From a virus: a stretch of 64,000 bases of DNA. Of the stretch, positions 25,151 to 51,633 are shown one piece after another. Position numbers and translations under genes: made by a program. The first letter of the stretch is position 1, and each line of letters begins with the position of its first letter. Below the pieces are notes generated by a model. That model did not search any database and was not told where the DNA came from. It worked only from the letters and a program-made list of their open reading frames with translations. The DNA lies in IMG/VR virus record IMGVR_UViG_3300044971_002537, positions 1 to 64,000 of that record; one strand, written 5' to 3'.

Positions 25151-26025
25151 CCTATTTCCTCTGAACGGTTTAAAATGTCGCATTCCCATAATCTGATGAA
25201 TCTCTCGCCGGTCATTATGGCGTTCTTCTTATAGTCATTTACAGCATTTACTTTTTGAGTTTTGGTTTTTGGGCCATTGGGATAAATCTTAGGATTAGAG
25301 TGAAAATAGTCTCCGTCAACTTCGAGATACGTGTCCAGATCTATAAGGTAGAAATCGAATGAGAAGAAGGATACTCTTTTTTCCTCTTCATATTTGACAC
25401 CGATGGAGTCTAGGATTTCAGCCATTCTAATATGCGGCTTGCTTTTAGTCTGCTTGAAGACGCCTCTCTTTATCGAGGCTAGAGTAGTTTCTCTTAGCCG
25501 TTGTTTCGTCTTCTCTGAATGGGGCATTCCAGTATGGCCATGTACTAATCTTTTCTTTGCCGATTCACTTTGTTTACTCTTGGTCTCGTCTGAGAATTTC
25601 ATCCCGAGACGATCTTCTCCTATTTTCTTCATGATGTCTGAAGTATCGGCAGTCAGCCCCTTATTCCATGCTGGCTTTTTGTACATGGGGTTGTTTTCCC
25701 CAAGCCTTTCGGTCTTAGCCCTTTTTGACCACTCTAGTGTCCCCGGAGTCCTACCGCACGCTAGTTTCTTGTATCTGATGTGAGCACCAGAGATTGTGAG
25801 CTTTAGCGGTTTCTTACAAAGACCACAGGGACATTCTTCTCTAGGAATCTTTAACACATCTAGAAAGTACTCATCCAAACTTAACGAATGATCATTCTTA
25901 AGATGGTCTCTAAAAGCATGAGAGAAATATACTTTGCCGCCTCCTGCCTCCTTTTTGATATCTCCGAGTGATTTTTGACAAATTTCACATTTAGACCAGT
26001 CGTCTCGTGTAATCTCGTAACTCAT
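25096..26025 (-). CDS. Free-standing Vsr-like (DUF559/EDxHD-type) homing endonuclease with NUMOD3-like repeats
   Basis: Cys/His zinc motifs, GENNPMY, HSEKTKQRL, FDFY...LEVDGDYFHS, RLWECD; lies between the intein halves. Confidence 0.8.
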   Translation of the reverse strand: MSYEITRDDWSKCEICQKSLGDIKKEAGGGKVYFSHAFRDHLKNDHSLSLDEYFLDVLKIPREECPCGLCKKPLKLTISGAHIRYKKLACGRTPGTLEWSKRAKTERLGENNPMYKKPAWNKGLTADTSDIMKKIGEDRLGMKFSDETKSKQSESAKKRLVHGHTGMPHSEKTKQRLRETTLASIKRGVFKQTKSKPHIRMAEILDSIGVKYEEEKRVSFFSFDFYLIDLDTYLEVDGDYFHSNPKIYPNGPKTKTQKVNAVNDYKKNAIMTGERFIRLWECDILNRSEEIGCKLKEYSQSLLWEPLDR

Positions 26026-26066: not shown

Positions 26067-26336
26067 CTATTCCTCACACATCACTCTCTTATTTTCAGAG
26101 ATTATTTGCCACAGTGGAGTCGGAACACCATCTTCACATAGAAGCTTATGGTCTAGAGAGCATTCAATTTCATATCCGTCCTCTAAACAGACCTTGAATA
26201 GTTCCACCTCGCCATTTTCCATTTTATCTAGAACTTTAACCATGCCGTCTGGACTATTGACACAATCCCCTATCTTGAGTTCATCTATAGTTAAATTACC
26301 CCTATTAGAATCTACTATAGATAAAGGAGATACGCA
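26067..26336 (-). mobile_element. Split intein N-fragment (DnaE), 89 aa
   Basis: Starts with Cys (block A), has block B C-S-L-D-H, and ends at a stop codon. Confidence 0.9.
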
Positions 26337-27683
26337 TTTATTAAACCCGTATCTCGCAGAAGCTTTGATATTGTCAAATAGTGATTTTGCTTCTTCGTCT
26401 TTTAGAATACCGACTCTCTTACATCCAGACAAGAATTGGTTTTCCAGAGAGAATAACTTTTTCGCATCCTTCTTCGCCGCCCCCTTCATCATTGAAAGAC
26501 TGTCAGCGGAGTTGAAGCCAGACAGTATCTTACAAATTCTCAGTAGGGTTTCTTGATAGATTAGGACACCGTAAGTGTCGATCACTTTGTTAATCGGAGT
26601 ATCATCTACTGCCTCTATTCCGTTCTTTCTATCAGCATAGACCTTGGTCATTGACCTTCCGGTCGTATCCCTAGCCTGAAGCGAACCGGGACGAATCACG
26701 CTTATGACTGCTGCAAGCTCTTCGATATCGCGAGGGCGAATTTCCTTAGACCAGTCCCTGCCGAGATGATTTTCGATCTGAAAACAACCCTTAGTATTTC
26801 CGGACCCAATAACATTCCAAGCTTCTTCGTCCGTAAGGGGCACGTCTACGATCCCAACGCCGTAGGCTTCTTGAATCTTATTGAGAATATCTACCCCGAG
26901 AAAGTCGAACTTAACAAGACCGGCCTTCTCCAGCCATGCCATATCAAAGGCGGCTATCGCCGAGCCATCTTTGGCGAGGCACATTGGGCTAACTTTAGCC
27001 ACTTCCTCAGAGGAAATGATTACGCCTGCTGCGTGTTTGCCCTGATTCTGGAAGGTCCCCTCTAGGGCGATAGCCTTACGGAAGATGTCGGCGTAGTCGC
27101 CGACTAAGATACCATCCTCAATTCGGCAATAGTCTGCGATTTTATCTCCATCGTTATGGAGCATCCATGAGATGATACTGTCTTCCCCTGTCTCTTCAAG
27201 TTGGTCGGAGATGGCTGCTTCGTCGGGGATTCCCTCCGTGACGATATTCATAGTTTCAAAGTCATAGCCGCCCTCGACTCGCATGACAGCTTTAACTGCG
27301 GAACGTCCCGATAACCGACCGAAGGTTGTAATCTGGCAGACCTTGTCAGGACCATACTTGGTCCTAACGTAATCGATAGCCTTCTCACGATAGTCCGTAG
27401 GAAAGTCCACGTCGATGTCGGGGAGGGCCGTAGAGGCCTTCGTGAAGGAGCAAGGCTTAGTTAGGTCGATATGGTCGACCTTGCCCGCTATGTACATAAT
27501 GAAGGAGTTCTTGGGATTACTCCGATCAAGCTGCACGTTCTTTAGAACGTGCTCATAGTAGGCTTTACCATCCGGCAACGAGTCTCGCAGAGACTCCTCT
27601 TCCAGTAAAAAGGAAGCGGCCCCATCAGAGATTTCCAGATGGCGTTCTAAGGAAATGATTTGCTCTGTCGACAATCCGGTCAT
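26067..27683 (-). CDS. dnaE: DnaE catalytic middle part followed by the N-half of a split intein
   Basis: LPDIDVDF, QITTFG, GKHAAGVII, GLVKFDFLG, GCFQIE, RPG, TYGVLIYQE, YGFNK, then IntN CVSPLS...CSLDHKLL. Start MTGLS follows GGAG. Confidence 0.9.
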   Translation of the reverse strand: MTGLSTEQIISLERHLEISDGAASFLLEEESLRDSLPDGKAYYEHVLKNVQLDRSNPKNSFIMYIAGKVDHIDLTKPCSFTKASTALPDIDVDFPTDYREKAIDYVRTKYGPDKVCQITTFGRLSGRSAVKAVMRVEGGYDFETMNIVTEGIPDEAAISDQLEETGEDSIISWMLHNDGDKIADYCRIEDGILVGDYADIFRKAIALEGTFQNQGKHAAGVIISSEEVAKVSPMCLAKDGSAIAAFDMAWLEKAGLVKFDFLGVDILNKIQEAYGVGIVDVPLTDEEAWNVIGSGNTKGCFQIENHLGRDWSKEIRPRDIEELAAVISVIRPGSLQARDTTGRSMTKVYADRKNGIEAVDDTPINKVIDTYGVLIYQETLLRICKILSGFNSADSLSMMKGAAKKDAKKLFSLENQFLSGCKRVGILKDEEAKSLFDNIKASARYGFNKCVSPLSIVDSNRGNLTIDELKIGDCVNSPDGMVKVLDKMENGEVELFKVCLEDGYEIECSLDHKLLCEDGVPTPLWQIISENKRVMCEE

Positions 27684-27950
27684 ATTAGTCTCCGCAATTC
27701 CCAAAAGCAGTTCCAAGAATTCCACTCAGGCCATCTCCATCTCCACTGTCGGCTTTAAGCCTCATGATCCTGTCAATGCTAGCCTGACCCATTTTAACAT
27801 GGGAGAGTGAGATTTGCAAGGAGATATCTGACTTAAGCAGATTGGGATAGTCAGCCTCTAATGCTTCGGAAGGACTTCCTCGTTTTTCGAGCCAAAATTC
27901 CCACATATCTATGTTTTCACTCATGCCACTAACTGAGGACCTTAGGCCCG

Positions 27951-35121: not shown

Positions 35122-36108
35122 TCATGGCTTCGCCTTAATCGCTTCTAGCTCTTTCAGATAGATAGCTTCGAAGTCCCTGAATTCGTCAATGAAGGGATAC
35201 TCATCAAAGCTTAAATGCTTAGGATAGGCTCGGGCCGCGTTGAAGAAGCGACTGAATAGAAGTCCATAAGGCATTGGATCGACTAGGTTGATCCCAATCA
35301 GGTCGGAGACCAAACAGCCTGCGGAACTTCCTCTTCCGATACTGCACAACTGTCCATCGCTTCTCCCCTTATTGACAAAGTCTGATACAATAAGGAAATA
35401 ACCAGATAGATTGGCCAACTCAATAACCTTCATCTCGTATCTGACGCGAGCGTCATACTCGGCTTTCTTGATAGGATCGAAGTTCTTCGTATGCTCTGCG
35501 AATCCCTCTTTTACTTTAGTCCAGAGTAGCTCAACTTCCCCGTCAGAGAATTTGGGGAGTTTTGGGGGAGCAGCAATTTCGAAATCTTCGAATTCATCGA
35601 TGAACGCATCATAGTCTATGTTTAGTTTAAGGCTAGGAGGGATCTCATCATACCCCATCATATGGAGACCTGCGGTCTCCTCTGTAAGCTCTGAGAGCTT
35701 GATTTTCAGTCCTAAGCACCGCATGATTCGATAGAACTCTTCATCAGACTTCTCTACATAGCGGCAGTCGGGGAGCTTTCCGGTAAAAGAATAGAGATGG
35801 GGTGAATTGGCTAAGGTGTCCCGATTGAGCCGGGCATGAATAGAGAACTCGTTCACGACAGACAATAGATCCTTCCATCCCTGAAGATTCTTGCAGAATG
35901 TGTAAGTCTCGCCAAAGTCGCACCCAATAATAGGTTTGATTTTGGCAGACTTACACTCTTCAATAAACTCCAGAGCGGCAGAGACATTGCCAAAGTCGCA
36001 GAGGCCCACTGCCTCATAACCTAAAGCTTTAGCCTTCTGTGCTATTTCCTTAGGCTTTGAGAAGGCTCGGTGAATGCTGTAATGGGTTCTATTGATCAGT
36101 GGTAACAT
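35122..36108 (-). CDS. dnaE: DnaE N-terminal part (PHP domain plus N-terminal palm segment), stand-alone gene
   Basis: THYSI, AVGLCDFGNV, IKPIIGCD, KNLQGWKDL, YFLIVSDFV, GRGSSAGCLVS.LIGI..VDP..YGLLFSRFFN; stops just before the PDID motif. Confidence 0.85.
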   Translation of the reverse strand: MLPLINRTHYSIHRAFSKPKEIAQKAKALGYEAVGLCDFGNVSAALEFIEECKSAKIKPIIGCDFGETYTFCKNLQGWKDLLSVVNEFSIHARLNRDTLANSPHLYSFTGKLPDCRYVEKSDEEFYRIMRCLGLKIKLSELTEETAGLHMMGYDEIPPSLKLNIDYDAFIDEFEDFEIAAPPKLPKFSDGEVELLWTKVKEGFAEHTKNFDPIKKAEYDARVRYEMKVIELANLSGYFLIVSDFVNKGRSDGQLCSIGRGSSAGCLVSDLIGINLVDPMPYGLLFSRFFNAARAYPKHLSFDEYPFIDEFRDFEAIYLKELEAIKAKP

Positions 36109-38627: not shown

Positions 38628-39509
38628 TTAGCAGTTACAGTCGAACTCGCTAGAGCCACAGCCCCCGCATTCGTATTCTTCTTCGTCTTCGCTCCAGTAC
38701 TCGTCAAGATCTTCGATATCTTCTGGGTCGATAGCATATGCTGGAGCCTGACGCTCGACGATAGCCAGATTCTTGAACTCGGAGACAACTTCGTAGTAGC
38801 AACAACGAATCTTCTGGCAGTCACAATCAAGAGGCACACTCACGACGTCAGCAGGGTCAACCTTGCAGATGATCTGCTTATTTGAAGTGTATACGCTTGT
38901 CACATACTTCAAGCTGCCAACGTGATAGCCTTCACTACAACCGACTTGAAAGTCATCATTGACCTTACGGCGAGGCATCTCGTTGACATCTCCCACGTTG
39001 TTGCGGATCTTACCAGTGTACTTATCCACGTAGTCACCAGCCTTAACTTCACGACCGTAGCAGTCCACGAAGTTAGGACCGTTATAAACTGACACAGACT
39101 TGTAAGCTAGAAAGCACCCATCCTCACAAATTGCCAAGCTCTTATGGGCCAACCAAGAGTAAAGCTCTTTAACGGCTCGGCTGCTTGGATTGTAGAACAA
39201 TCGCTTCATGAAGTTGAGCATGGGGACTTCATCGAACCCCTCCTCAATCATTGAGAGAATGATAGAAGAGATTGATGGGTCAATTTGTTCGTCCTGATAG
39301 TAAAGAGCCCCCTCCCGAAGAACGAATCCATCCTTCGACCAAGTCTGGACGTTTTTGCCAATATTGATGAGGGAGAGAAAGCCCGCTTCGTCTTTTGTCT
39401 TTACTGACTCAATCAGAGCGGCATAGTTTGGATGGCTGCTATCAAATGTGTGGACCTCGTTAGAGGTCACAACTGTCCAGCAACCATTGTGATCTTTAAT
39501 GTAGTTCAT
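38628..39509 (-). CDS. rIIB: rIIB-like protein
   Basis: NPSSRAVKELY.WL, DGCFLAYK, MPRRKV.DD...CSEGYHVGS, KVDPADVVSVP.DC...KIRCC.YEV. Confidence 0.85.
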   Translation of the reverse strand: MNYIKDHNGCWTVVTSNEVHTFDSSHPNYAALIESVKTKDEAGFLSLINIGKNVQTWSKDGFVLREGALYYQDEQIDPSISSIILSMIEEGFDEVPMLNFMKRLFYNPSSRAVKELYSWLAHKSLAICEDGCFLAYKSVSVYNGPNFVDCYGREVKAGDYVDKYTGKIRNNVGDVNEMPRRKVNDDFQVGCSEGYHVGSLKYVTSVYTSNKQIICKVDPADVVSVPLDCDCQKIRCCYYEVVSEFKNLAIVERQAPAYAIDPEDIEDLDEYWSEDEEEYECGGCGSSEFDCNC

Positions 39510-41278
39510 TTCAGCTCCTTGAGGTAGGTGAGAAGTTCTGCGTCGGTCGGTTTTGAGTAATAGTGGTACGAGATAAATTTCAAAAGGGGGAACTCTGTTG
39601 AGTATCTCTCAGAAAGTTTATCAAGCGTGTCGTCGTGGGCCACATCGAACAGATTGTACAACGAGATGATATCGCTGTCAAGATCCTTTTTGGCGAATCT
39701 TTTGTCAACCTTTGACAGGATCGCCTGATTGGTCGGTTTATCTAAGATCGCCTTTTCCGGCAGGACAAGGTTCTCTTTCAGGAATTCGCGAAGCTCAACT
39801 CCCTGCCCCTTGTTCTTTACAGAGGGGGATAACCCATAGATCACATCAATATCAGCACCTAACTTCTTAGCGGCAGAGACCAAGCTATTCACTGCGTGAT
39901 ACCCAGAATACGCAGATGGTTTTCCATGCATAGTCTCAATATACACGTAATGCTCAGAAGTATCTAGCTGGGCCTCGTTCCAGCAGCCATTAACGCAGGA
40001 TCTAACCTTAATACTCTTCGACTTGGGTCCACGAGCATATACAATCTTCGGCAGCGTGTCAAGATCCTTGATCACATCCAAGTCAATCTTACACTCTGAG
40101 ATTTGAGCATCAGTCAGGACTACGATCTTCCCACCATGATCTTTCAGATAACTCTTGATTCGAGCCGTAAACTTTGGCTTGAATCGGTAGTAATCGGCAG
40201 AAAGTGGCAAGGCTTTCATATGGCTGATATTCACAGACTTATATGTCTTAGAATAAACAGACATCTCCGTAGAGGTGTGCGGAAGCACATAATCGAACTT
40301 CTTCTTATTACATTCGATGATGTTGCCCAAAACTCCACAGTTCACCTTATCAAACATCTTTGCACGTTTGAATTCGGTATCTTCAGCTTCAATTAGGCCG
40401 ATGATATGATCCGCCATACCCTCCTTAACTTGATTGACCCTTGCTTTTAGATTGGCAATGGTCTTGTTGTCTAACGAGAGTGACTCACGCCCAAGGTCGA
40501 AGTCCAAATCCCCAATCTCAAATCGGATGTACCCATCAATATCGAGCCCATACCCATGTGGGATGTCGTAGGCTACATTCCCCATGACGGCTTTACATTG
40601 ACCATAGCCAGTATTGAAAGCGAACCCGTCACCCTTGACTTTGAATTCACGGGCAGCTACGATCTTCTCTTTTACTGAGGAGATATTAATCTCGGGGATT
40701 ACGTCAAAGTACTTAAATACTTCGACAGCTTCGTCTTGGAATTCATAGTCTCGACCCATTACGTTGACAATAACTTCAACACCGGATGGTTCATCAGTTG
40801 GGGAAGACGACAAGAGTGCCATCTGAGGAAGGTCATCCTCATCCTTATAGGCAGAGTAGGTATATTTAACTCCATCATTAACTGACTTAACAATAAAGCT
40901 ATCTACAATAGAATAAGCAACTTTTGCCCCGATGCCTAGTGCCCCAATTAATTTATTGCTATTAGTCTTAGTGGAGCAGAAATAAACGGTATAGACATCC
41001 CGTACATCATCTGGGGATAGGCCCTTACCATTATCTGCTACAGAGAACCAAGGTTCGAGTTTAGTAGGGAGATGCACTCGTGGGACGGCTGAGACTTCAG
41101 CATCAGTGTTCGCGTCAAGAGCATTGCAAGTAAGCTCTCGGATTACGGCTCGGACCTTGAATTTGTATGGATTCGATGAGAGGAGCTTGAATGCCTTAGC
41201 ACTCGCATCAATGCGGAATCCCGAGGTCTGAAACGAGCCTGAGGTTTGAGTACTTTTCTTTACGCCTTCGATGATCAT
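39506..41278 (-). CDS. rIIA: rIIA-like protein (GHKL/HSP90-like ATPase N-terminus)
   Basis: AFKLLSS..Y, VIRELTCNALDA, DNGKGL, STKTNSN..IGALGIGAK, VMGNVAY, RESLS; directly upstream of rIIB. Confidence 0.85.
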   Translation of the reverse strand: MIIEGVKKSTQTSGSFQTSGFRIDASAKAFKLLSSNPYKFKVRAVIRELTCNALDANTDAEVSAVPRVHLPTKLEPWFSVADNGKGLSPDDVRDVYTVYFCSTKTNSNKLIGALGIGAKVAYSIVDSFIVKSVNDGVKYTYSAYKDEDDLPQMALLSSSPTDEPSGVEVIVNVMGRDYEFQDEAVEVFKYFDVIPEINISSVKEKIVAAREFKVKGDGFAFNTGYGQCKAVMGNVAYDIPHGYGLDIDGYIRFEIGDLDFDLGRESLSLDNKTIANLKARVNQVKEGMADHIIGLIEAEDTEFKRAKMFDKVNCGVLGNIIECNKKKFDYVLPHTSTEMSVYSKTYKSVNISHMKALPLSADYYRFKPKFTARIKSYLKDHGGKIVVLTDAQISECKIDLDVIKDLDTLPKIVYARGPKSKSIKVRSCVNGCWNEAQLDTSEHYVYIETMHGKPSAYSGYHAVNSLVSAAKKLGADIDVIYGLSPSVKNKGQGVELREFLKENLVLPEKAILDKPTNQAILSKVDKRFAKKDLDSDIISLYNLFDVAHDDTLDKLSERYSTEFPLLKFISYHYYSKPTDAELLTYLKELK

Positions 41279-41618: not shown

Positions 41619-42074
41619 TTATTTCCCTAGCGTGTAAATTGTCCAGCTACCTTCGGTAGCATAATCTTCGAGGATATCGTGGACCAGACTTTTGTCGGCC
41701 TTACCGAGGCCACAGCCGATCTCCGGAAGACCTATAGTCTTCCCAGTAAAAGAGAAGTCTCTACAGATTTCGTCCAAGGCTCTCTTGAAGGCTCCATACT
41801 CAAACTTACGACAGGATGTCCCATAGTCATATTGAGCATATAGATTAATAATAGTCAACCCACTCAGGAAGACTGAAGAATATGAGCCGATCCTCTCAAT
41901 CGGGGATCTATAATCGGCCTGATCTACTAAGAAGGCTTTTGGGAATTCTTCCTTGATAAGTTTGGCCACTCCTGAACCCATCGTGGAGAAGCAATTCGCA
42001 CAATGAATCAAGTAGTCGATCTCTTTATTCTTGGCCGCTTCTATTAGGCAACCATTCTTAAAGGATAGGGTCAT
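41619..42074 (-). CDS. Macrodomain (ADP-ribose binding/hydrolase) protein
   Basis: IHCANCFSTMGSGVA...NLYAQY...PEIGCGLG. Confidence 0.85.
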   Translation of the reverse strand: MTLSFKNGCLIEAAKNKEIDYLIHCANCFSTMGSGVAKLIKEEFPKAFLVDQADYRSPIERIGSYSSVFLSGLTIINLYAQYDYGTSCRKFEYGAFKRALDEICRDFSFTGKTIGLPEIGCGLGKADKSLVHDILEDYATEGSWTIYTLGK

Positions 42075-42580
42075 GCGACCTCCAAATCTAGCATTCTGCG
42101 AGTTTCTTCGAAGGACTGACAACCAACATCAACATTGAAGACGCTTTTGCCGAAAGTTGGCAGGTAGGAGTTCTGCTCATCTGTAAGGATGTAAAGCCTT
42201 TCAGGCTTGACATGGTAGTGGCTGACATGCTTAACAGCTTTTTCTAGGAAGATCCCACCACCACCAAAATCATAACAGGCTCTTCTTAGGGCCAACCATA
42301 GATTAAACCCATCGTAGTTGAGCTGTTCGGTCATGTGAGACTGGTCGGAGTCAAGGCCTGAACTGGCGTATAGGGGGGCGTCAGCCCGAAGCTTGATCTC
42401 TGCGGCAAGGGCAGCGGCGATTTGGAGGCGGGAATAATTCCCATTAGGCAACTCCATGCTTCCACTAACGTCCACAATGATAATGGATTTTGGAAGAGGA
42501 GGAAGCTCACGAGCCAGACGAGTGACTTTGTCATCGTTGGCGGGGGAATAGGGTGAATCGAATAGGTCTAGGAAGGTCAT
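42071..42580 (-). CDS. Stand-alone vWA domain of TROVE/Ro60 type
   Basis: MIDAS DVSGSM, SRLQIAAALA, GGGGIFL, ILTDEQ; lacks the large helical TROVE region. Confidence 0.6.
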   Translation of the reverse strand: MTFLDLFDSPYSPANDDKVTRLARELPPLPKSIIIVDVSGSMELPNGNYSRLQIAAALAAEIKLRADAPLYASSGLDSDQSHMTEQLNYDGFNLWLALRRACYDFGGGGIFLEKAVKHVSHYHVKPERLYILTDEQNSYLPTFGKSVFNVDVGCQSFEETRRMLDLEVA

Positions 42581-42623
42581 AAGGCTACGCCCTTAAGAGT
42601 AGGTACTTTTCTTTTACCGAAAG

Positions 42624-42697
42624 TACATCCGAGTAGATTTGCACTACTGACCTGCCGCTTAGAAGGCGGCTGCTCTATCTGACTGAGCTACGGATGC
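42624..42697 (-). tRNA. tRNA-Arg(UCU)
   Basis: GCATCCG/CGGATGT acceptor, GCTC/GAGC D stem, GCCGC-CTTCTAA-GCGGC, AGTAG-TGCAAAT-CTACT; no encoded CCA. Confidence 0.9.
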
Positions 42698-42763
42698 GTA
42701 AAATTGGCGAAGCCAATAAAATGTCCCGGCCCAATAGTGCATGGACCGGGACCTCGTTTTCCG

Positions 42764-42792
42764 ATTATAGCTGACCTTGGTCAGCTTGTCAA
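42764..42792 (-). promoter_or_regulatory. Consensus sigma70 promoter upstream of tRNA-Arg
   Basis: TTGACA, spacer AGCTGACCAAGGTCAGC (17 nt, palindromic), TATAAT. Confidence 0.8.
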
Positions 42793-44060
42793 CTGGATTC
42801 TGGAGAATCACCAATTCTTCAGAATATACTGTTCAACGATCCAGAGAATCCTCATCCCAAACACAGATCCGGTCACAATAAGCCAGAATCCTAGCCAAAA
42901 TTTCTGATTACCGTCCAAGGTTTCGCTCCTTATAGGGGTTTATTCTTCATCATCCATCATAGACATTATTGCTGCGAATAGATAAGCTGGTAACATTAAC
43001 GGTAGAATCAAAATATTCAACCATCCTGAGCGATTGCCAACTAGCAAGAAGGTTTTAGCCAGCATAAAGATGGCTGCGAATCCAAAGATTACTGTTAGTG
43101 CTTCAATCATTGGTTAGTCCGGAAAAATCAATGGGGAGATCCACTGGCTCATGCCGATTTTTCGGCAGTTTATCCCAAGCTCGCCTATGAAGAGTTATAG
43201 TGTAGTGCGACAGCATACACCAGAAGACTTCACGATGTAGTACGTGAGTACGTTGTACATCCATAGTAGCTTCATAAAATGCATCGATATGAACAGGAGG
43301 GAAGACTGGGTAATCTATATTCTTAGGGTCAGGATCGGTAAAAAGGAAGTAGTGCTTCCCAGCATGGGGCGTTTTGAATACGCCACTATACCGAAGAACC
43401 CTTTGATAAGAGGCATCAGAACAGCATGGGATACAATGAACCACTCCACTACCGGGTAGATGACATGGGCACTTACATGGGTAGTATGGGCTTTTATACT
43501 CCACGAAGTAGAGGGCCTTGTATACAAGGCCAAATTGGGCGGCTAAAGCCTCTTGAATATCTTTCATTAGCCAGCACTACTTAAAAAGTGAAGAGAGATA
43601 TCTCCGGGGAGTTTATCCTTAAGCTCCGTCATTAACTTTACGAGATAGCTGATCTCGACTGAGCCTTCGAGTAGGTCAACCCTGCCCATATCACGTTCGT
43701 TACCGATGAATGTGCCGATACAGAAGTAGGCTTCGCCATCAGAGTCGTCTTCTTGGACATAAGAATCAAGATCAAGCTCAGCAGCGATGTTCTCAATCAT
43801 ACAACACCAGTCGTCGCTCTCTTCTCCCATGAAGACATACTTAAGTTCGGATTCCCGAACTAGAACTCTTTCAGTCCCAGTAATTTTGCCGGTTTTGGGA
43901 TTGTAGCGGTTTTGATCTTCATAGGTCGCTTCCGCTACCATTACTGTGATATCAGAGAGAGGAACCTCGATTCCTACCATGCACTTCTGCTGAAAATTAA
44001 CGCCCATTTCAACTCCAATTAACTAGGCTCACTACCAATTGTGCTAGAGCTATGCTCAAG

Positions 44061-44134
44061 TGGTCCCGGTCAGATTCCAACTGACAACTTTTTCCTCTTA
44101 AGGGAAACGCCTCTGGCAATTGGGCTACGAGACC
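44061..44134 (-). tRNA. tRNA-Leu(UAA)-like with a short variable loop
   Basis: GGTCTCG/CGGGACC acceptor, TTTCC-CTTAAGA-GGAAA, GTCAG-TTGGAAT-CTGAC, discriminator A. Confidence 0.8.
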
Positions 44135-44136
44135 AA

Positions 44137-44206
44137 GCACGAGAATAAGGAATCGGACCTTAAAAGTAGATTTTGGAGATCCACCTGCCGCCACGGCATC
44201 CTCGTG
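44137..44206 (-). tRNA. Non-canonical tRNA with a CCA (Trp) anticodon
   Basis: CACGAGGA/TTCTCGTG, GCCG-TGG-CGGC, GTGGAT-CTCCAAA-ATCTAC, TTT, TAAGG-TCCGATT-CCTTA. Confidence 0.7.
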
Positions 44207-44891
44207 AATGTTGGTCTCGAAACCAACCGGACAGCCGTTAGCCTGCCTTTGTCTATTGCCGCCGACGAATTTGGCAGACTGCTACAAGAGGCCATGTTAG
44301 TGGCCTCATTGTACTACTTACTTCTCGTTTGTCGAGTGGAAATGAATGAGTTTCCTCAAAAATTCCCAGAGGGGACGAGACGGTCTTCCCTCGTATCCGC
44401 TGCCACCGGCAGCATCCACACTGAACACCTGTACATCAAGCTGTAGATCTGAGACTACCTCTTCGACCCGACCATCCTTGAGACAGATGACTACGGTCCC
44501 ATCCACCTTGGTGGTTCCATCTAGGTTTCTGGCTGGAGTTGTTTGGATCATGGCTTCGCCTATTTGTACGGTGGGTAAGTGAGCTTTGCTCACTTTTAGT
44601 CGACGACTACCTCAACTTCCAACATTCTACATCGCTCGACGGCAAAGTCAAGAGCGTCTTGGAACATTTTGCTCATATTGGACAGCAGGAGATCGTGCCC
44701 ACTATTGATAGCTTTGATCACGCCCTTGTGTTGGCGAGCGGCAGCGTCTTTTGGATCGCCGAGCTTCTCATATTGGAGCCAATTTGGCCACAAGTGGCTC
44801 TCCCAAACACAATAGAAGAGCATCATCTCTGCTGGGGTTCCACGGACTGAGACGACTTCGTTGTCGGAACTTTTGCTTACTTTGATCATGA

Positions 44892-45713
44892 TTAATTCTC
44901 GATATCTAGTAATGTGATCTTGTGACGATCCAAAACCCCAATAGCACAAAAATATGCTATAGAAACAACCTCAACACCTTCTCTTTTATCTGGAATCTGT
45001 GTGACCTTGTGAGTCTTAGCGTCAAACTTAAAGGCAGTATTAAAGCCCATAAGTGGCGGCAAGTGCGGTAACTGCGTAAGTACCATAGTATCTGGTCTGT
45101 CGCACCTAACCATTAGGCCAACATCTTCTTTGAACTTAAGCATGGCACAATTGGCCATGTGGTCTTGGAATGGTTGGCCCTTCCCGAGAAGGTGACTACA
45201 GATGACGTTTTCTGCGAGAAAAGGAGGAGAAGGAAACGCAAATCTTGCGTCAAGAGTTTCAGGACTGATGACGAACTTATGTCGTGGGGAATTGGTAGAA
45301 AGGATATGGGATTTTTCATACCCGAAAATCGCACGAGATTCGGCTCCTGCCGCAAATAAGGTATGCAGCATGTCGGACTCTATGCGTCTTTCTAGACCTC
45401 TAGCAAGTACTTCGTAAACTCTCTTAACGAGAGCTGGTCTGTCTTTATGCTCAGTTTTATATGTGACGTTCTGCTGGATCATATAGGGGATAATGCGAAT
45501 AGTGTGTTTACCATCCCCAAAAAAGTCGATAGGGAACTCAAGCTCTTCAGTTCTTGTAAAGAGCCGTGCAATATCAGGCAGCTTAAAATCACAAAAGGTG
45601 GCAAAGCGATCAGCGGCAAGGACGTTCGTGTTAGGAGTCGCAATAGCCGAGCCAGTGAACAAAGGCATAGCAGACAGGCCACAGAACTTAGCGAATGATC
45701 TTCTTGATAGCAT
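44892..45713 (-). CDS. Tat-signal protein, putative diverged major-capsid paralog
   Basis: N-terminal MLSRRSFAK..hydrophobic..AIA twin-arginine signal; the body has capsid-like motifs (see findings). Confidence 0.55.
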   Translation of the reverse strand: MLSRRSFAKFCGLSAMPLFTGSAIATPNTNVLAADRFATFCDFKLPDIARLFTRTEELEFPIDFFGDGKHTIRIIPYMIQQNVTYKTEHKDRPALVKRVYEVLARGLERRIESDMLHTLFAAGAESRAIFGYEKSHILSTNSPRHKFVISPETLDARFAFPSPPFLAENVICSHLLGKGQPFQDHMANCAMLKFKEDVGLMVRCDRPDTMVLTQLPHLPPLMGFNTAFKFDAKTHKVTQIPDKREGVEVVSIAYFCAIGVLDRHKITLLDIEN

Positions 45714-45728
45714 AATGTCTCCGATATT

Positions 45729-46005
45729 TAAAAAAACCTATGGTGCCGAAAGCACCAAATTCCAGATGCTGGTAATGCACCAGTTGCCACTTCCTACTAT
45801 ATTGATGGCATGCGGGTTACAGCCGCACAGCAGGATCATCTGGAGATTACGGTCTGTGATAGCTCTCCTATTAGACGTAGGATTACTCAGACCGGCGATT
45901 CTTTTGAGTGAACGCCCGTGGTCCCAAGAATCTGCTAAAGAAAACACCCTACCGGAATAAGCTTATCAACCCTTGTCTAAGGGGTTGCATCACCTATTCT
46001 GTCTC
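45729..46005 (-). ncRNA. Unclassified ~270-nt structured RNA ending in a terminator
   Basis: Nested stems (TCCAGATG/CATCTGGA closing three hairpins; CGGTCTG/CAGACCG; CAACCCC/GGGTTG) and a final TGGTGC-TTTCG-GCACCA hairpin before a T7 tract. Confidence 0.55.
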
Positions 46006-46213
46006 GCCTGAAAATTATAGAAGGCCAAGGGCCTTCCCACAAACCGCACAAGATCTTGCCCAATAGGGCCACATATCCGTATCGTGAACTAAGCTGTGGT
46101 CACACACCCTATGATGATGCCAATTCTTCTTAGCCTCAGTGATCTCTTCAGGAGTCACGTCCTCAAGGCGGGACCGCCCATTCTCTTTGACTTCTCTAAC
46201 AATAGGACCGAAC

Positions 46214-46651
46214 TCACTCATTAGCTTCCTCCAAAATGGCAAGTGCTAACTCGTACTTGTCAATTCGCTGCTTCTGCTTTGGTGATAAATCGCTCAGGTT
46301 ATCATTGAGATCTGCGATCTTAACCACTGAAGCCGTAGGATTAGTGCGAAGCCTCATGATGTATTCTGCGTATGACTCGTCTTCGTCGTGGGTCAGACAC
46401 TGAACTACCTTCTTTACCTCGGGACCGAATTTATCTTGAATCTCTTCATAGAGCAATCCAGTATCCTCGACCGTATCATGCAGCCAGCCCACGATTTGGT
46501 AAATCTTTGGATATCCTTGGTCCCTAAGCCATTTTGCCACTCTGGCAGGATGAGCAATATAGGGAGTACCATCCCATCTAGTCTGGCCTTCGTGGGCCTT
46601 AGTGGCTACCTGTTCAGCTAATAAAAGTTGTTGACTCATAGATTCGTCCAT
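46214..46651 (-). CDS. Single-domain RelA/SpoT-type HD hydrolase (small alarmone hydrolase, Mesh1-like)
   Basis: AHEGQTR.DGTPYIAHP..VA, WLHDTVEDT, LTH, VKIADLNDN. Confidence 0.85.
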   Translation of the reverse strand: MDESMSQQLLLAEQVATKAHEGQTRWDGTPYIAHPARVAKWLRDQGYPKIYQIVGWLHDTVEDTGLLYEEIQDKFGPEVKKVVQCLTHDEDESYAEYIMRLRTNPTASVVKIADLNDNLSDLSPKQKQRIDKYELALAILEEANE

Positions 46652-46732
46652 TTTAGTTGTTCTCCGAACTCCATATGGCTCCTGTAATGGCTCAACACCT
46701 TTTGACACTTCCATAGTTCTTATCTCTTAAAA

Positions 46733-46851
46733 GTCCTCAGAACTCTGACGCTGGCAGATTCGAACTGCCTCGGTGGTAGCTAACCGTGTTCCCACAACTT
46801 TTCATCGGAGTCGAACCGAATGCCTTCCTTTTCGTCAGAGTCCGGAGGACT
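46733..46851 (-). ncRNA. tRNA-mimic-like RNA with two T-arms inside a long closing helix
   Basis: A ~19-bp terminal stem encloses TCGG-TTCGACT-CCGA and GGCAG-TTCGAAT-CTGCC. Confidence 0.65.
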
Positions 46852-47401
46852 CATCAATTCGATTAGCAGCAACTAATCTGCAAAATTCTATGACTTGCTC
46901 GTCTGAATATTTGTTTCTAGCCATGTTCGCCATATGACAGACAAACCTTATGTTTCCGCGAACATATCCTATCGAGTTATCTATTCTGTCTACTGAAGCA
47001 CAATAGGCAGTAATCCTAGATTTTAAACTATCCTTCATTGTTCTTAGGGACATTTTTATTCCAGCGAATGGGCAAATACCATCCTGACTATCCCAAACCT
47101 CTTTTAAGTAGCCGATATCAAAATCAATCGAACTATTCTTTTTCTTCCTATCCGGGTTCTTAATGCACTTCATATGAAGCCGAAATGGAGAAAGATCATC
47201 TCCCTCTCGCACACCTTTGATGTGGAGAGCTTGGCCATTTGTGTATGGAGCAAGTCTCTCTACATTTTCTGCTACTTTGCTACCGCACTTGTTATTGCAA
47301 TAGAATTTACATTTTCCCAGCCTAATCCTACGGTTATACTCACCAACTGGTTTTAGTACGATCCCGCCGCAATAATCACAATTTACTTCTATTTTTCTCA
47401 T
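46835..47401 (-). CDS. HNH-type homing endonuclease
   Basis: CDYCG...YCNNKC zinc motif; W.SQDGICP..G, ASVDRIDNSIGYVRGNIRFVC..AN. Confidence 0.8.
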   Translation of the reverse strand: MRKIEVNCDYCGGIVLKPVGEYNRRIRLGKCKFYCNNKCGSKVAENVERLAPYTNGQALHIKGVREGDDLSPFRLHMKCIKNPDRKKKNSSIDFDIGYLKEVWDSQDGICPFAGIKMSLRTMKDSLKSRITAYCASVDRIDNSIGYVRGNIRFVCHMANMARNKYSDEQVIEFCRLVAANRIDESSGL

Positions 47402-47455
47402 AATGGCCCTCCTTAATAGAATACGCTATTAAAGTGGATCATGAGAGAAAATTAA

Positions 47456-47729
47456 TGGACCGTGGCGGTTTCGCTCCGCCGTCATGGACTAATCTCATCA
47501 ATAACATCTACGGGTGTATGGGGCTAAAGCCCCCGGTTCGTGTGGTCAGCCAAGCTGACGTTGCGTATCGTTGCTCTCATGCTTTTGTAAGGAGGGGCAT
47601 GAGGCCCTCCAGCCTACGCGGCTACAGCAAAGGATTTTGCAGTTATTGTTCGGTCAATTTTTAAGGAGCCGTTGACCAACTCCTACCCGCAGTTATTGCC
47701 TTAATTGCCATTCAAATCAATTACGGCCC
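47456..47729 (-). ncRNA. ssrA: tmRNA, compact (274 nt); tag (A)AKSFAVAA
   Basis: GGGCCGT/ACGGTCC-A acceptor with G3:U70; T arm GGCGG-AGCGAAA-CCGCC; pk1 (GGAG/CTCC with GGTCAA/TTGACC); ATAACT then GCA AAA TCC TTT GCT GTA GCC GCG TAG at 47640-47614. Confidence 0.9.
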
Positions 47730-47955
47730 GTTTGGCTTCGCCTTAGTAGGGAGTCTCACTGAAAGTGAGGTTCCTTAGAATATGATCGGCCACTTCAATC
47801 CCGGAATAGGTCTCCCAATTCCCCGAGATTGCATTGTAATAGCCAATCTTCTTGTCGTCCCGGAAGTACTGGACTGAGACGATCATCTCATTCACTACGT
47901 ATTCGCCAATCTTATCAAAGAGGATGGTATCCTCAAAGTCTTCTCTGGTCATGGC

Positions 47956-49236
47956 CTAGCCTTTCAAGGACTCTTCGTCTTCAATAGAAACAACGCCATC
48001 GTCAAGCTGCTTAGTCTCATGACCAAGGAATACAGGAGACTTAGCTTTATATAGAGAAGGAGTAAGCCCATTGTCAATACGGATTACTACGCCTTCGTCT
48101 ACCGTCTTAGGATCAGACAGAGGAAGGCACTGTGAGTATCCACGATCAACATATCGCATGTCCATAAAGTCTTCGTAGTTGAAGTCTTTCTTATGCCCAC
48201 GCCACATTTCTGGGCAAATCTTTACTCCATTTTCAGTACACCACTTCTTCATACCATCATATGGCAGGTCTACACAGATACCGTCTTCGTTAACCACGGC
48301 AATTCGGTAAACATAGATGTCAAAACATCCTGCCTTCTGATCATATGTATAACCCTTCTGAATTGGCGAGTTGTTAGACCAACCAATAAGTTCGCCATAG
48401 ATCACCCAGTTCTTCGGAATAAGGTGGCCAATTTTATCTAGGGCCTGATTCCAAAGGTCTGAGCAGTAGAAGCCTACTTGATCTGTGTCCCTGATTTTAA
48501 CAACAGTTCGAGATCCTGCAATGAGTTGATAGTCAGATTTTCGAAAAAGCTTTTCGAGAAACTTTACGATCTTCCAATTGCCAAATCCCTTGTTGTACAG
48601 ACGAACTAGCCACTTTGGAAACTTGATCATCTTCTGGTGAGTCAGACGAAAACTCGTCCCGTGTAATTTTTGGCTGACAATGATGTATGCATCGTCATTT
48701 ACGGAAGAACGATTTCGTCCCCAGTTTGACGTATCGATATGCTCTGGGAACAGCTTTGAATTGAATAGCTGTCGAGTCTTGATCTTTGTAGATTTAGGCC
48801 CAGAAGACTGCTGTGTAAGAATAATGTACTTCTTACAAACTTCCTCGTCCGCAAGGACATTAAACATATCCCCTTCCTTTAGGTGGGAGATATCGCCCAA
48901 ATACCCAAGAGAAGAAATCGGCATGATCAAAGCAGAAGATACATTGCCACGAAGCTTGACAGCCCGCACACGTCTCTTGTTATTGATATAGCCCTTCTGA
49001 GTCTTATCCTTGTTTAGGTCTGACTTATCAAAAAGATTGTTCTCAAAACAATACTTATCAGAAAGCTGAGACTCTGCGGTAAAGAAGACATACAGTTGAT
49101 CTAGGTCATAGTCCTTAGGAACCAAGGCATTAAACCCGAACAATGGTACTCCGACCAGATTGTCCAGACCGTCCAGCTTGACTGTGGACTTGATCCGGAT
49201 GATAGTCGCACAATAGTTTTCATTATTCAGAATCAT
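47956..49236 (-). CDS. RNA ligase (Rnl2-like/DRB0094 type)
   Basis: Motif I QKLHGTS, GSR, IYGELIG, EGVVIR, YKAKS; N-terminal OB-like module (VRAVKLRGNVS). Confidence 0.8.
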   Translation of the reverse strand: MILNNENYCATIIRIKSTVKLDGLDNLVGVPLFGFNALVPKDYDLDQLYVFFTAESQLSDKYCFENNLFDKSDLNKDKTQKGYINNKRRVRAVKLRGNVSSALIMPISSLGYLGDISHLKEGDMFNVLADEEVCKKYIILTQQSSGPKSTKIKTRQLFNSKLFPEHIDTSNWGRNRSSVNDDAYIIVSQKLHGTSFRLTHQKMIKFPKWLVRLYNKGFGNWKIVKFLEKLFRKSDYQLIAGSRTVVKIRDTDQVGFYCSDLWNQALDKIGHLIPKNWVIYGELIGWSNNSPIQKGYTYDQKAGCFDIYVYRIAVVNEDGICVDLPYDGMKKWCTENGVKICPEMWRGHKKDFNYEDFMDMRYVDRGYSQCLPLSDPKTVDEGVVIRIDNGLTPSLYKAKSPVFLGHETKQLDDGVVSIEDEESLKG

Positions 49237-49636
49237 CTTGGTCTCCCCTGAGGCCGAGCCTCCTGATTTCTCTTTTACTGAGTTGTCTTTTCTTCCAACT
49301 GGTCAGACCACCGTATAGTATCATGGATTCACGGTGTGTCAAGATCTAAGTTGTTCATGGCTACGCCTTTTTAGTCGGAGTTTTCTAACAAGAATAAACG
49401 GCGATACCAATATCCAGCATACAGCAAAAAATACAAGGGAGGTCAAGACAAGCGGCCAAAACACAATACTTAAACAGACTGATTCGTCATTACTGAATGG
49501 CTCAGACGTAAGGAGTTGATCACTTTCCTGACTAAAGAATACCCACCAAATAGTTCGGGCTGCAATAGCTATAAATATTGGTGTGATATAGACAGGAATG
49601 ATCCAGTTCACGACTTCGTCCTTATAAATAGATAAA

Positions 49637-49803
49637 TCTCCTCAAGAGAAAGAGTACAGCCACAACTCAAGCGATCAACATGAGTTGCCTAAAACATACG
49701 TCGTGTTTTTATCCCCCAGCCTAGACTTGTCTCTGGGTGTTTATTTCACGAGAACCACGGTCAAATAGTCGCCTTATACGTTACCTGTATTCTCTTGAGG
49801 AGA
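49637..49803 (-). ncRNA. Unclassified ~165-nt closed RNA domain
   Basis: A 14-bp perfect terminal stem TCTCCTCAAGAGAA/TTCTCTTGAGGAGA, extended by TACAG/CTGTA, with internal hairpins. Confidence 0.55.
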
Positions 49804-49804
49804 A

Positions 49805-49962
49805 TGCCGCATCATAGGATTTGCACCTACCTTAGGCATCTTCTGCGTAAACAGAAGTTTATAGCCAGCAACTTTACGGGTTGCTTTGCTCCCTTCCCCC
49901 CATCCACCATTCGTAAAGCCCCTTGAGGCACTACGAGCGGTGGACAGGTTTGCGGATACGGC
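49805..49962 (-). ncRNA. 158-nt tRNA-like RNA (8-bp acceptor and 5-bp T arm around a large insert)
   Basis: GCCGTATC/GATGCGGC-A and GTAGG-TGCAAAT-CCTAT, with three internal hairpins. Confidence 0.6.
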
Positions 49963-50069
49963 GATTAGCCAGATTCCGGCTTACTTCTCATACCTTTGGA
50001 GGTTGGTCGGCTGACTTCTGCTCACGCCCAGTATAAGATCTCGGGGTCTGGTGGACCCTAGAGTCCTAT

Positions 50070-50141
50070 CTGGCCAGCTAGGACTCGAACCTAGAACCGT
50101 CGCTTTAACAGAGCGAAGCAAAACCTTTATGCTTCTGGCCA
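50070..50141 (-). tRNA. tRNA-Asn(GUU)
   Basis: TGGCCAG/CTGGCCA-G, TCGCT-CTGTTAA-AGCGA, CTAGG-TTCGAGT-CCTAG. Confidence 0.9.
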
Positions 50142-51633
50142 ATGTGGGGCAAAGCCCCTCTTATAATAAGTTGTAAAAGATCCGCTAAGATCTTATACGC
50201 CCGTACTCTCCCGTTTGATACTTTATTTTGGGGATTTTCTCAGAGATCCGGAGGATCTCACGATAGTCCCACGACCAAACGGCTGACTGAGGTGGACAGC
50301 TTGCTTTCCACCTCTGAAGGTTTCTCGCGAAATTGTTCCTCGTCCGAAGGGCTGTGTGATGATTGTACTCCCGTCGGAACGACGTGTCAAGGTCCCATTT
50401 CCGAACTTTGTGGTGACGCTGGTTTCACCAGCCTCAACCGAGACGCAGATGGCAAAAGCCATCAGTGCTTCAAGCACTCTCATGATTCTCCCCTAGATTA
50501 AGACTGTAATCATATCGAGGATCTCGAATTTTTCATCTTTAGTCATGGATTTCCTCAAAACATTCTGCAAGATGCCACTCGCCCGAGATTACGAGCATCA
50601 AGCCAAATTTGGAATCTTCCAGATGATCAATCTCATAGATGTTACCTACGGTACATCGGCAGAGATCTGAGATTCCATCCTTATGATAGTCTGGAGATTC
50701 CTTGATGCATTTGAACTTGGGGACCTTCCCCAGCTTATCCAGAATAGCTAGACAGCCAAGAGACAAACACCTCATTCGTTCTTCAGAATCAAAGATGCCG
50801 TCGCCGTCAGTGTACATACCGAGAACTGTCTCATCTCCACAGTCTGGATGTTCTACCCGAAAGTAACCATGTCGGAGACGGAAGTATCCGACATATTGGC
50901 CATCAATGAAGGCATCATACTGCTCAGGGCAAGCACCGCAAGTGCAAACAAGCTCAATTCCGAGGATATTCTGGTTCATGGCTTCGCCTCAGCACTAGTA
51001 AGAGGTTCCTCTGGAACCTCAAACAACTGGGATACGCCCAAATGATATCCCGCCATATATTCATGACTCTTAGCATTGTGGATACCATCCATGACACCTT
51101 CCTCATAAGTTCTCTTATTAGAGAACTGGTAGGTCATATCCGCCATCTGATCACGCAAGACCTGAGCTTCAGTCTTATGAAGCTCAATCTCATGATTCAG
51201 GAGTGTAACTTCCCTACTCCGAGACTCAAGCTTATGAGCACTTGAGAAGGTCATCCCCATCATAAACAGGCCAAATCCGGCAAACGCAAAATCTCTTGGG
51301 TTCATAATAGTTCCTTTATGGGTGGAATTTGATATTACTGAGCCACTTCAGTAAACTCAGGATCATGGCTCATTTCCTTTACGGCTCGGCCCAGAGCAAT
51401 GGCCAAACCACGCTTCTTGTTGTAGCAGTCGCTCTTGCTGCACTTGGCAATACCAGTGTACTGCTTTCCTTCTGAGTGAATCTCCACGATTGTAGATCCG
51501 CCCTTCGGAGACAGCATCGGAGTAAGAACCTTGGTCAGTGCGTTTTGGTAAACCCACTGATTCTTTACGATTCGATCGTGGTTGATGTAGACCCGGAAAC
51601 CAGCCTGTCGAAGCTCACTGATTAATTTGTGCA

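Follow-up and report, generated by a model that had tools for sequence, protein, structure and literature searches.

Introduction

In the tRNA region of phage T4, the stable RNAs C and D and the homing endonuclease SegB lie among co-transcribed tRNA genes. The RNA-repair and tRNA-provisioning genes of large phages have been treated in an overview that covers the protein classes considered here (Iyer et al., 2021; PMC7824862), and sets of tRNA and transfer-messenger RNA (tmRNA) genes have been described in mycobacteriophages (PMC1475703). This report concerns a region of similar kind in the IMG/VR virus record IMGVR_UViG_3300044971_002537. The record is 139,854 bp long, with an estimated completeness of 72%; its first 64 kb were analysed and are called the window. 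Between positions 41619 and 50141 of the window, 8.5 kb hold tRNAs, a tmRNA, a macro domain protein, a vWA protein, an HD protein, an RNA ligase, an HNH endonuclease and several structured RNAs, among them the two called A2 and B3. Comparison with relatives indicates that the region is probably a tRNA/tmRNA accessory island of an uncultured large phage, made up of independent cassettes rather than forming one system. Its structured RNAs probably come from tRNA precursors.

Other described systems bear on single parts of the island. Allo-tRNAs with 8/4 or 9/3 branches have been reported, some of them in phage tRNA clusters (Mukai et al., 2017; PMC5389517), and tRNAs without a D arm are known from mitochondria (PMC7609411). 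The tRNA-Tyr of phage T5 has been shown to overcome the retron Eco7 PtuAB (PMC11555353) and its tRNA-Lys to overcome PARIS (PMC11464382). The Ro60/Y RNA ribonucleoprotein, which includes Ro60 of phage phiLo (PMC12135203; PDB 9l5y), contains the vWA domains that come nearest in sequence and fold to the vWA protein of the island, the MIDAS motif of which is intact; unlike Ro60, the protein lacks the TROVE HEAT-repeat ring, which is absent from the record as well.

Like the tRNA and RNA-repair kits of large phages, the island clusters tRNAs, a tmRNA, an RNA ligase, a macro domain and a Ro-related protein, a combination that is read as support of translation under host attack. It differs from those kits in that the Ro-type protein is a vWA domain alone, in that end-healing enzymes were not found in the record and in that the parts assort independently. 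As in the T4 tRNA region, small and putatively stable RNAs and a homing endonuclease lie among the tRNA genes. The likeness to T4 RNAs C and D is one of general description, and B3 and the family of A2 have folds of their own.

Gene Content Across Relatives

Relatives were sought by four routes: rIIA, DNA patterns derived from the RNAs, patterns in metagenomes and homologues of the vWA protein. Seven of them span the island (L002, L003, L013, L014, L016, L017 and L018/19) and were compared by blastn and tblastn from the p109/p86 flank to the vWA gene or rIIA, with L013 stopping before the vWA gene. Cultured phages gave zero megablast matches to the island and nothing in a tblastn search with the vWA protein, and the DNA polymerase shares no more than about 33% identity with proteins of cultured phages.

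Every gene between 41.3 and 51 kb lies on the minus strand, and the neighbours include rIIA (39506-41278), rIIB (38628-39509) and pieces of a DnaE-type DNA polymerase. The order vWA-macro-p90-rIIA-rIIB, in which p90 has 90 aa, is kept in nearly all relatives, down to 48-55% protein identity; the exception is L017, where the macro gene was undetected and the p90 match is weak. Upstream of the vWA gene, content varies in all relatives, tRNA sets included, and the same slot carries other cargo elsewhere (dCMP deaminase, HAD phosphatase, DNA ligase, HicA, denV and unrelated HNH genes).

Among the window and the seven island-spanning relatives, the RNA ligase occurs in one genome, that of the window, and the HD gene in three (window, L002 and L014); both are also missing throughout the 123.6-kb record of the closest large relative (G001). 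The ligase stretch of the window (49249-47967) is replaced in L013 by 7 nt, a clean excision, and its slot is occupied by tRNA genes in L002 and L003. Compared with L003, HNH, the RNA TT, HD and p75 make up an inserted block of 1.4 kb. The RNAs B2 and B3 are also found on contigs that have tmRNA and tRNA-Gln and lack all proteins of the island. Cassettes, namely tRNAs, tmRNA, HNH, alarmone hydrolase, ligase, small membrane open reading frames (ORFs) and RNAs, have been gained, lost and swapped between related phages, and several carry their own promoter-like site (ahead of tRNA-Arg, tRNA-Asn and the ligase). The structured RNAs travel with the tRNAs and tmRNA and not with the ligase or the HD gene.

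A preliminary description of the region had combined its proteins and RNAs into one integrated anti-defence module, by analogy with linked Ro60, Y RNAs and RNA ligases in bacteria. Much of its inventory stands. The macrodomain, HD protein, tmRNA and RNA ligase are present on the minus strand at or near the positions given there, as profile and Rfam evidence attests, and published work does link the classes to which the proteins belong to phage counter-defence or translation support (PMC7824862, section 3.4.9; PMC11782079). The unclassified structured RNAs are likewise there, and at least two are real, one of them tRNA-like: none matches Rfam 15, and B3 and A2 have covariation support. The integration itself is contradicted by the uneven distribution of ligase and HD gene. 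Co-occurrence of the RNAs with the ligase and vWA genes had been proposed as its check, with lack of co-occurrence of the genes in relatives named beforehand as a refuting outcome, and that is the outcome found. The Ro60 analogy fares no better: there is no TROVE ring, island gaps yielded no above-chance Rfam match to a Y RNA or YrlA-like RNA even at E<=10, and the record (72% complete) holds no gene for end healing by a PNK-type kinase or Tpt1 and none for RlaP. Genes of counter-defence type that lie together in a phage tRNA island should be called a system only after relatives have been compared; here, the parts assort freely.

The vWA and Macro Domain Proteins

The vWA and macro genes are the sole near-constant pair and are translationally coupled. 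The start of the macro gene overlaps the stop of the vWA gene, and the two adjoin in L002, L003, L014, L016 and L018/19. The pair belongs to the conserved rIIA/rIIB-proximal block, outside the variable island.

The vWA protein had been called TROVE-type, of which the Ro60-type vWA domain with its MIDAS was borne out and the TROVE ring was not. The protein aligns to positions 283-394 of the 476 in phrog_850. Its only sequence matches in PDB are the TROVE proteins 9l5y and 9kop (E 0.01), and it covers just residues 324-431 of 9l5y. An AlphaFold model (pLDDT 89.9) gave phage phiLo Ro60, 9kop and Xenopus and human Ro60 as top Foldseek matches. The MIDAS residues (DxSxS, T, D) D37, S39, S41, T133 and D134 are invariant in 15 vWA homologues of 161-184 aa. 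No PF05731 match to the TROVE ring was obtained in the 139.8-kb record at E<=0.1, a search in which control genomes do match. A Histone3 stem-loop match within the vWA gene was discarded at 26 bits, below the gathering score of 34.

The macro domain is real yet distant. The protein scores 22.8 bits with PF01661 (cut-off 22) and 4e-43 with phrog_335, and the solved structures closest to it are those of TARG1/OARD1 and of a DarG-type macrodomain. With NF048014, it reaches 23.8 bits against a cut-off of 250, which places it in the generic Macro family only and short of the DarG/TARG1 family level. Across nearly the whole sampled lineage, a Ro60-type vWA protein that stands alone is thus coupled to a macro domain beside rIIA/rIIB.

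A Family of tRNA-like RNAs Without a D Hairpin

RNA A2 belongs to a family with a 7-bp acceptor and a 6-bp helix, H2 (positions 11-16 with 47-52), that brackets the anticodon hairpin, the loop of which reads CUGUAAA/C. H2 is followed by a conserved 12-nt strand, a conserved linker UGGCGGCA, a T arm with a 4-5-bp stem and a discriminator A. In A2, the acceptor is separated from the anticodon stem by only 10 nt. Of the features of a canonical tRNA, the acceptor, the anticodon stem with its 7-nt loop, the T arm and the discriminator are present, and the cloverleaf with D hairpin is not. A search with a pattern based on the conserved loop brought up this architecture in the tRNA arrays of unrelated IMG/VR contigs, and CCA is encoded in three contigs of the family (L024, L030 and L031). 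Over seven sequences (six unrelated contigs and the window), 22 pairs are 97.4% paired, 19 of them with compensatory changes; pairing is complete (100%), and covariation is seen, in the helices of acceptor, H2 and anticodon.

ARAGORN misses A2 even at relaxed settings and called none of the Tyr-type sequences of the family. A2 has no match to RF00005, and its relatives receive weak tRNA-Sec matches only, at 23-27 bits. Model R2 of the family also finds a UCU (Arg) scaffold at L013:8460-8545, where the window has a canonical tRNA-Arg and which ARAGORN names a 96-nt tRNA-Arg, a UAU (Ile) scaffold at L017:2592-2675 and a second Tyr-type copy in a 98%-complete phage.

The site of A2 holds A2 in the window and L003 and an ordinary tRNA-Tyr in L002, L013 and L014. 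Because it alternates with ordinary tRNA-Tyr at this locus, A2 most likely supplies or imitates tRNA-Tyr. ARAGORN found no ordinary tRNA-Tyr in the fetched arrays with the Tyr type, nor in the window's own record. About 40% of positions are different between the copies in the window and in L003; both sides have changed in 11 of the 23 pairs, which nonetheless still pair. An origin of A2 by divergence from the ordinary tRNA-Tyr of the lineage was considered and set aside, as the two fail to align.

Like other irregular tRNAs, the A2 family is non-canonical, tRNA-shaped and located in tRNA gene clusters, with weak tRNA-Sec matches and with UAU and Arg anticodons besides the Tyr type. It differs from allo-tRNAs, which have a 12-bp branch (8/4 or 9/3) and a D arm, in its 7-bp acceptor, 4-5-bp T stem and missing D hairpin. 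The T5 cases offer a second likeness, namely a phage RNA that has the anticodon loop of tRNA-Tyr and whose place is taken by an ordinary tRNA-Tyr in some relatives; unlike in T5, it is the body of A2 that is re-wired and not the anticodon loop. Published phage tRNAs that beat tRNA-cleaving defences make a role of A2 as working tRNA or decoy plausible.

RNA B3

The fold of B3 is conserved and supported by covariation. Its 13 loci, all in this lineage, fall into three sequence types. A model with the long closing helix and seven further segments has 41 pairs that are 98.3% paired over 287 cells. Compensatory changes are seen at 10 pairs, against at most three after sliding of the partners. In L018/19, the core of B3 is 85% identical, and rIIA there is only 55% identical at the protein level. 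The downstream neighbour of B3 varies, some genomes having a tRNA there and others an ORF, and B3 is therefore not the leader of one particular gene.

The B3 type of the window is 100% identical in L007, L008, L010 and L012, of which the tmRNA is 83% and the genes are 70-90% identical to those of the window. The closest backbone relatives carry another B3 type, so that type is discordant with backbone relatedness. Since the window type is shared with diverged phages and not with the closest relatives, the B3 module is exchanged horizontally. Searches of bacterial and archaeal genomes with the B3 pattern gave no match and therefore no clue to the host; metagenomes gave no sequence types beyond the same three, and model R1 found no further copies in L016 and L017. 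B3 is probably a lineage-specific stable RNA.

A limited literature search found no description of the vWA-macro coupling, of B3 or of the re-wired tRNA family, and reviews of irregular tRNAs do not contain this topology (PMC7609411; PMC5389517). Two RNA families missed by annotation tools also gain covariance models from the comparison. It is conceivable, although we hold it only tentatively, that A2-type RNAs are an undescribed tRNA architecture, acting as working Tyr, Arg and Ile tRNAs or as high-affinity decoys, with an altered body that evades tRNA-directed nucleases of the host, and that B3 is a new functional class of tRNA-operon RNA. If the re-wired family were charged and used, the range of functional tRNA shapes outside mitochondria would be wider than described, and phage tRNAs might evade tRNA-cleaving defences at the level of the body rather than the anticodon loop.

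Other Structured RNAs

Features of the island are collected in Table 1. Fold z-scores were computed against dinucleotide shuffles, with values of -4.0 for B3 and those in the table for the others; among the controls, the tmRNA scored -3.9 and three coding stretches about -1. Compared with Rfam 15, A, A2, B1-B3 and TT gave chance-level matches only, even at E<=10, and no family.

Table 1. Positions and characteristics of the island's genes and RNAs in the window.
Feature	Coordinates	Strand	Characteristics
Macro domain protein, TARG1/DarG-like	41619..42074	-	151 aa counted from internal ATG
Stand-alone Ro60-type vWA protein	42071..42580	-	169 aa; complete MIDAS motif; no TROVE ring
tRNA-Arg(UCU)	42623..42697	-	canonical; ARAGORN and Rfam
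tRNA-Leu(UAA)	44060..44134	-	75 nt; ARAGORN and Rfam; no long variable arm
tRNA-Trp(CCA)-like RNA	44137..44205	-	69 nt; non-canonical; ARAGORN only
Structured leader	44206..44317	-	upstream of tRNA-Leu/tRNA-Trp-like pair; z -3.6
273-aa protein	44892..45713	-	variable cassette; twin-arginine-like N-terminus; no known family
RNA A2, tRNA-Tyr(GUA)-like	45760..45844	-	no D hairpin; anticodon loop CUGUAAC; T-like hairpin; discriminator A; model R2 88.8 bits
Element A	45849..46014	-	166 nt; directly 5' of A2 (of tRNA-Tyr in L002); z -1.8
HD protein, small-alarmone-hydrolase type	46214..46714	-	166 aa
RNA TT	46733..46851	-	long helix around two T-arm-like hairpins; overlaps HNH 3' end; z -3.5
HNH endonuclease, free-standing, homing-type	46835..47401	-	188 aa; phrog_3322, phrog_1035
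tmRNA, short	47453..47729	-	tag AKSFAVAA then stop; Rfam RF00023 and features
RNA ligase, Rnl2 superfamily	47956..49236	-	N-terminal OB-like part; single-gene cassette
RNA B3	49636..49804	-	169 nt; eight counted helix segments; long closing helix; A-rich junction strands
RNA B2	49805..49967	-	163 nt; 8-bp acceptor-like stem on T arm; discriminator A; z -4.7
Element B1	49967..50051	-	85 nt; 10-11-bp closing helix; z -1.2
tRNA-Asn(GUU)	50069..50142	-	ARAGORN and Rfam

B2 has a T loop of UGCAAAU, and about 120 nt of hairpins replace its D and anticodon arms. It is 99% identical in L007, L008, L010 and L012, so covariation cannot be judged. At the same place, L003 has an analogous 7/5 element with the loop UGCAAWU, in an alignment read by eye. 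B1 is conserved in L002, L008 and L014, and the leader in L002, L014 and partly L003. Element A is about 93% identical over 170 aligned bases of the window, L002 and L003, with one change in the last ~100 bases and with flanks that are 77-91% identical. A coding explanation for element A was rejected: the only frame that crosses it is not kept in L002, and the last ~100 bases show one change across all codon positions.

TT is missing wherever HNH is missing, and both are absent in L003. In the closest relative, L002, a 13-nt deletion removes half of its second T arm. For that reason, TT is probably decaying or a mere terminator or processing helix.

A conserved hairpin module of about 70 nt was noticed in L002 (~1800-1870), L003 (~1700-1790) and L016 (905-975) and is absent from the window; its closing stem is of 8 bp (TGGGACGA/TCGTCCCA), and its loop includes ACUGU.

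Proposed Explanation and Alternatives

The distribution of parts is best explained by an accessory island just upstream of what would be a conserved early block, vWA-macro-p90-rIIA-rIIB, in a phage with a DnaE-type polymerase. Judged by family membership, the tRNAs and tmRNA would keep phage translation going, the HD enzyme would remove alarmones of the (p)ppGpp or (p)ppApp type, the ligase would seal nicked RNA and the macro domain would remove ADP-ribose adducts or derivatives. Each protein may act alone in the role of its family and not in a complex. The structured RNAs are probably co-transcribed with the tRNAs and excised from the same precursors, with the closing helices or the acceptor/T-arm minihelices as likely processing handles. 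A2-type RNAs could be re-wired tRNAs in which a helix between the 5' region and a segment after the anticodon arm takes the place of the D hairpin, and they might stand in for tRNA-Tyr, Arg or Ile as working tRNAs or decoys.

Several points weigh against this account. The RNA structures were derived from the same sequences that were used for the pair counts. The 99-100% identity of B2 and B3 across diverged phages could mean recent transfer rather than constraint. In the window copy of A2, the T loop has 5 nt, the TTC motif is missing and the linker is altered. The copy may be decaying or less fit than the family consensus, given the 5-nt T loop and the altered linker. The relatives are all metagenomic contigs, several of them fragmentary, and absence is weak evidence outside those that span the island. 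Finally, independent assortment is compatible with functional cooperation where the parts coincide.

The single Ro60/Y RNA-like anti-defence system of the preliminary description, in which tRNA mimics would act as scaffold or decoy for the vWA protein and ligase, draws on the placement of all parts on one strand inside 8.5 kb, on the Ro60 type of the vWA protein, on the reality of the tRNA-like RNAs and on documented phage Ro60 and RNA-repair kits (PMC7824862; PMC12135203). It is nevertheless very improbable. Only this genome has the ligase, the HD gene is patchy, B2 and B3 are found without any of the proteins, the TROVE ring that is the known Y RNA-binding part of Ro60 is missing along with any Y RNA match, PNK, Tpt1 and RlaP genes are not in the record, and several separate promoter-like sites are predicted.

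Two further explanations concern the RNAs more than the proteins. The unclassified RNAs could be mostly functionless debris of cassette shuffling, that is, tRNA genes in decay, scars of recombination and hairpins of terminators or processing sites. The half-lost T arm of TT, which travels with a homing endonuclease, would fit such an origin, as would the degenerate T loop of the window A2, the weak fold z-scores of A and B1 and the mosaic nature of the region. Debris is, however, an unlikely origin for most of these RNAs. B3 and the A2 family are preserved by compensatory changes in diverged as well as unrelated phages, conservation of the B3 core exceeds that of nearby proteins, and the last 100 or so bases of element A have one change, while the flanks of the element are 77-91% identical. 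Slightly less likely again is that B2, B3 and HNH-TT are selfish mobile RNA/DNA modules that spread between co-infecting phages, so that near-identity reflects recent transfer. The identity of B3 (100%) and B2 (99%) in four phages despite 83% identity of their tmRNA agrees with such spread, as do sharp boundaries at 49967, 49805 and 49635, the discordance of B3 type with backbone and the presence of an HNH endonuclease in the island. On the other side, there is no transposase or integrase, target-site repeats were not noticed, HNH is not next to B2 or B3, and the older divergence of B3 with covariation implies selection on its fold.

tRNAs and tmRNA

Three of the four tRNAs in the preliminary description (Arg, Leu and Asn) were recovered by ARAGORN and Rfam alike. 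The fourth, the Trp-like RNA, was recovered by ARAGORN only, with no match to the Rfam tRNA model at E<=5; it is conserved in L002 and L014. Its D arm is short and its T loop reads UCCGAUU. The tRNA-Arg is preceded by a 12/12 sigma-70 consensus site (42792-42764), and a consensus-like promoter site also precedes tRNA-Asn. The tRNA-Leu(UAA) of L016 and L017 takes 85-nt forms, compared with 75 nt in the window.

The tmRNA of the window scores 41.6 bits, under the gathering score of 47, with an E value of 5e-14, and was not called by ARAGORN. Its orthologues in relatives score 47.1, 51.4 and 59.7 bits. The acceptor GGGCCGU/ACGGUCC of its tRNA-Ala-like domain contains a G3:U70 pair, the internal tag frame closes with a hydrophobic tail and a stop, and the helices covary; tag changes between relatives are synonymous, except for one Ser-to-Thr in L003. 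The E value, G3:U70 pair, AKSFAVAA tag, covarying helices and orthologues of 47-60 bits together argue that the tmRNA is genuine. A tmRNA split by HNH, with TT as its true 3' end, was ruled out, as the Rfam alignment spans the full model including T arm and 3' acceptor strand.

In diverged relatives, a tRNA-resembling RNA of about 67 nt lies just upstream of B3 in L006 and at L018:7095-7165. It has a perfect 5-bp T stem and a loop of UCCAAUU, and received no ARAGORN call.

Other Proteins

The HD protein carries the hallmarks of a small alarmone hydrolase, the RSH hydrolase HD domain, as far as profile and motif can tell. It scores 44.7 bits with PF13328 (HD_4; cut-off 27.2), has single-domain size and shows the motif LHDTVED of the HDxxED type. 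Among solved structures, the (p)ppApp hydrolase 7smg comes closest (5.7e-18), ahead of the hydrolase domains of Rel/SpoT and of MESH1.

The ligase matches PF09414 (1.9e-15, 57.9 bits) and phrog_968 (1e-88), contains the motif KLHGT and is 42% identical to the ligases of phage XacN1 and mycobacteriophages. Scores stay below cut-off for the PHA02142 OB domain (23.2; cut-off 27) and for TIGR02306 (24 bits; cut-off 151), and the likeness to the DRB0094/Rnl5 family is weak. A sequence search gave no solved relative, and no close relatives were found in IMG/VR. The promoter-like site of the ligase lies at 49342-49315. The HNH endonuclease occurs among relatives as two alleles, 100% and 58% identical.

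The 273-aa protein has a twin-arginine-type signal (SRRSFAKF... AIA). It is absent in L003 and 43-60% identical in L013 and L002; tblastn of its own genome found no second copy at E<=0.01, a search that remote similarity could escape.

Two small predicted membrane ORFs of 56 aa and about 36 aa lie at 42808-43110 on the minus strand, the shorter with a TTG start and a good ribosome-binding site. They are followed by a perfect TTGACA-17-TATAAT and a GC-rich hairpin immediately preceding tRNA-Arg, and the 42808-43110 stretch is 85-86% identical even in L018/19. Between ligase and tmRNA, a 69-aa ORF (47743-47952) without a family match is 84-94% identical in all relatives including L018/19, much better conserved than its neighbours.

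Genomic Setting

The DnaE-type polymerase III alpha is split over 12 kb into at least three ORFs on the minus strand (24041-25189, 26067-27725 and 35122-36108), with other genes interspersed. The DnaE piece of L018 has a weak Pfam match to intein splicing. At 11630-22090, on the plus strand and opposite to most of the window, about 12 co-oriented genes include an aminotransferase, and a glycosyltransferase lies nearby on the other strand. This run of genes is likely a sugar or surface modification cluster.

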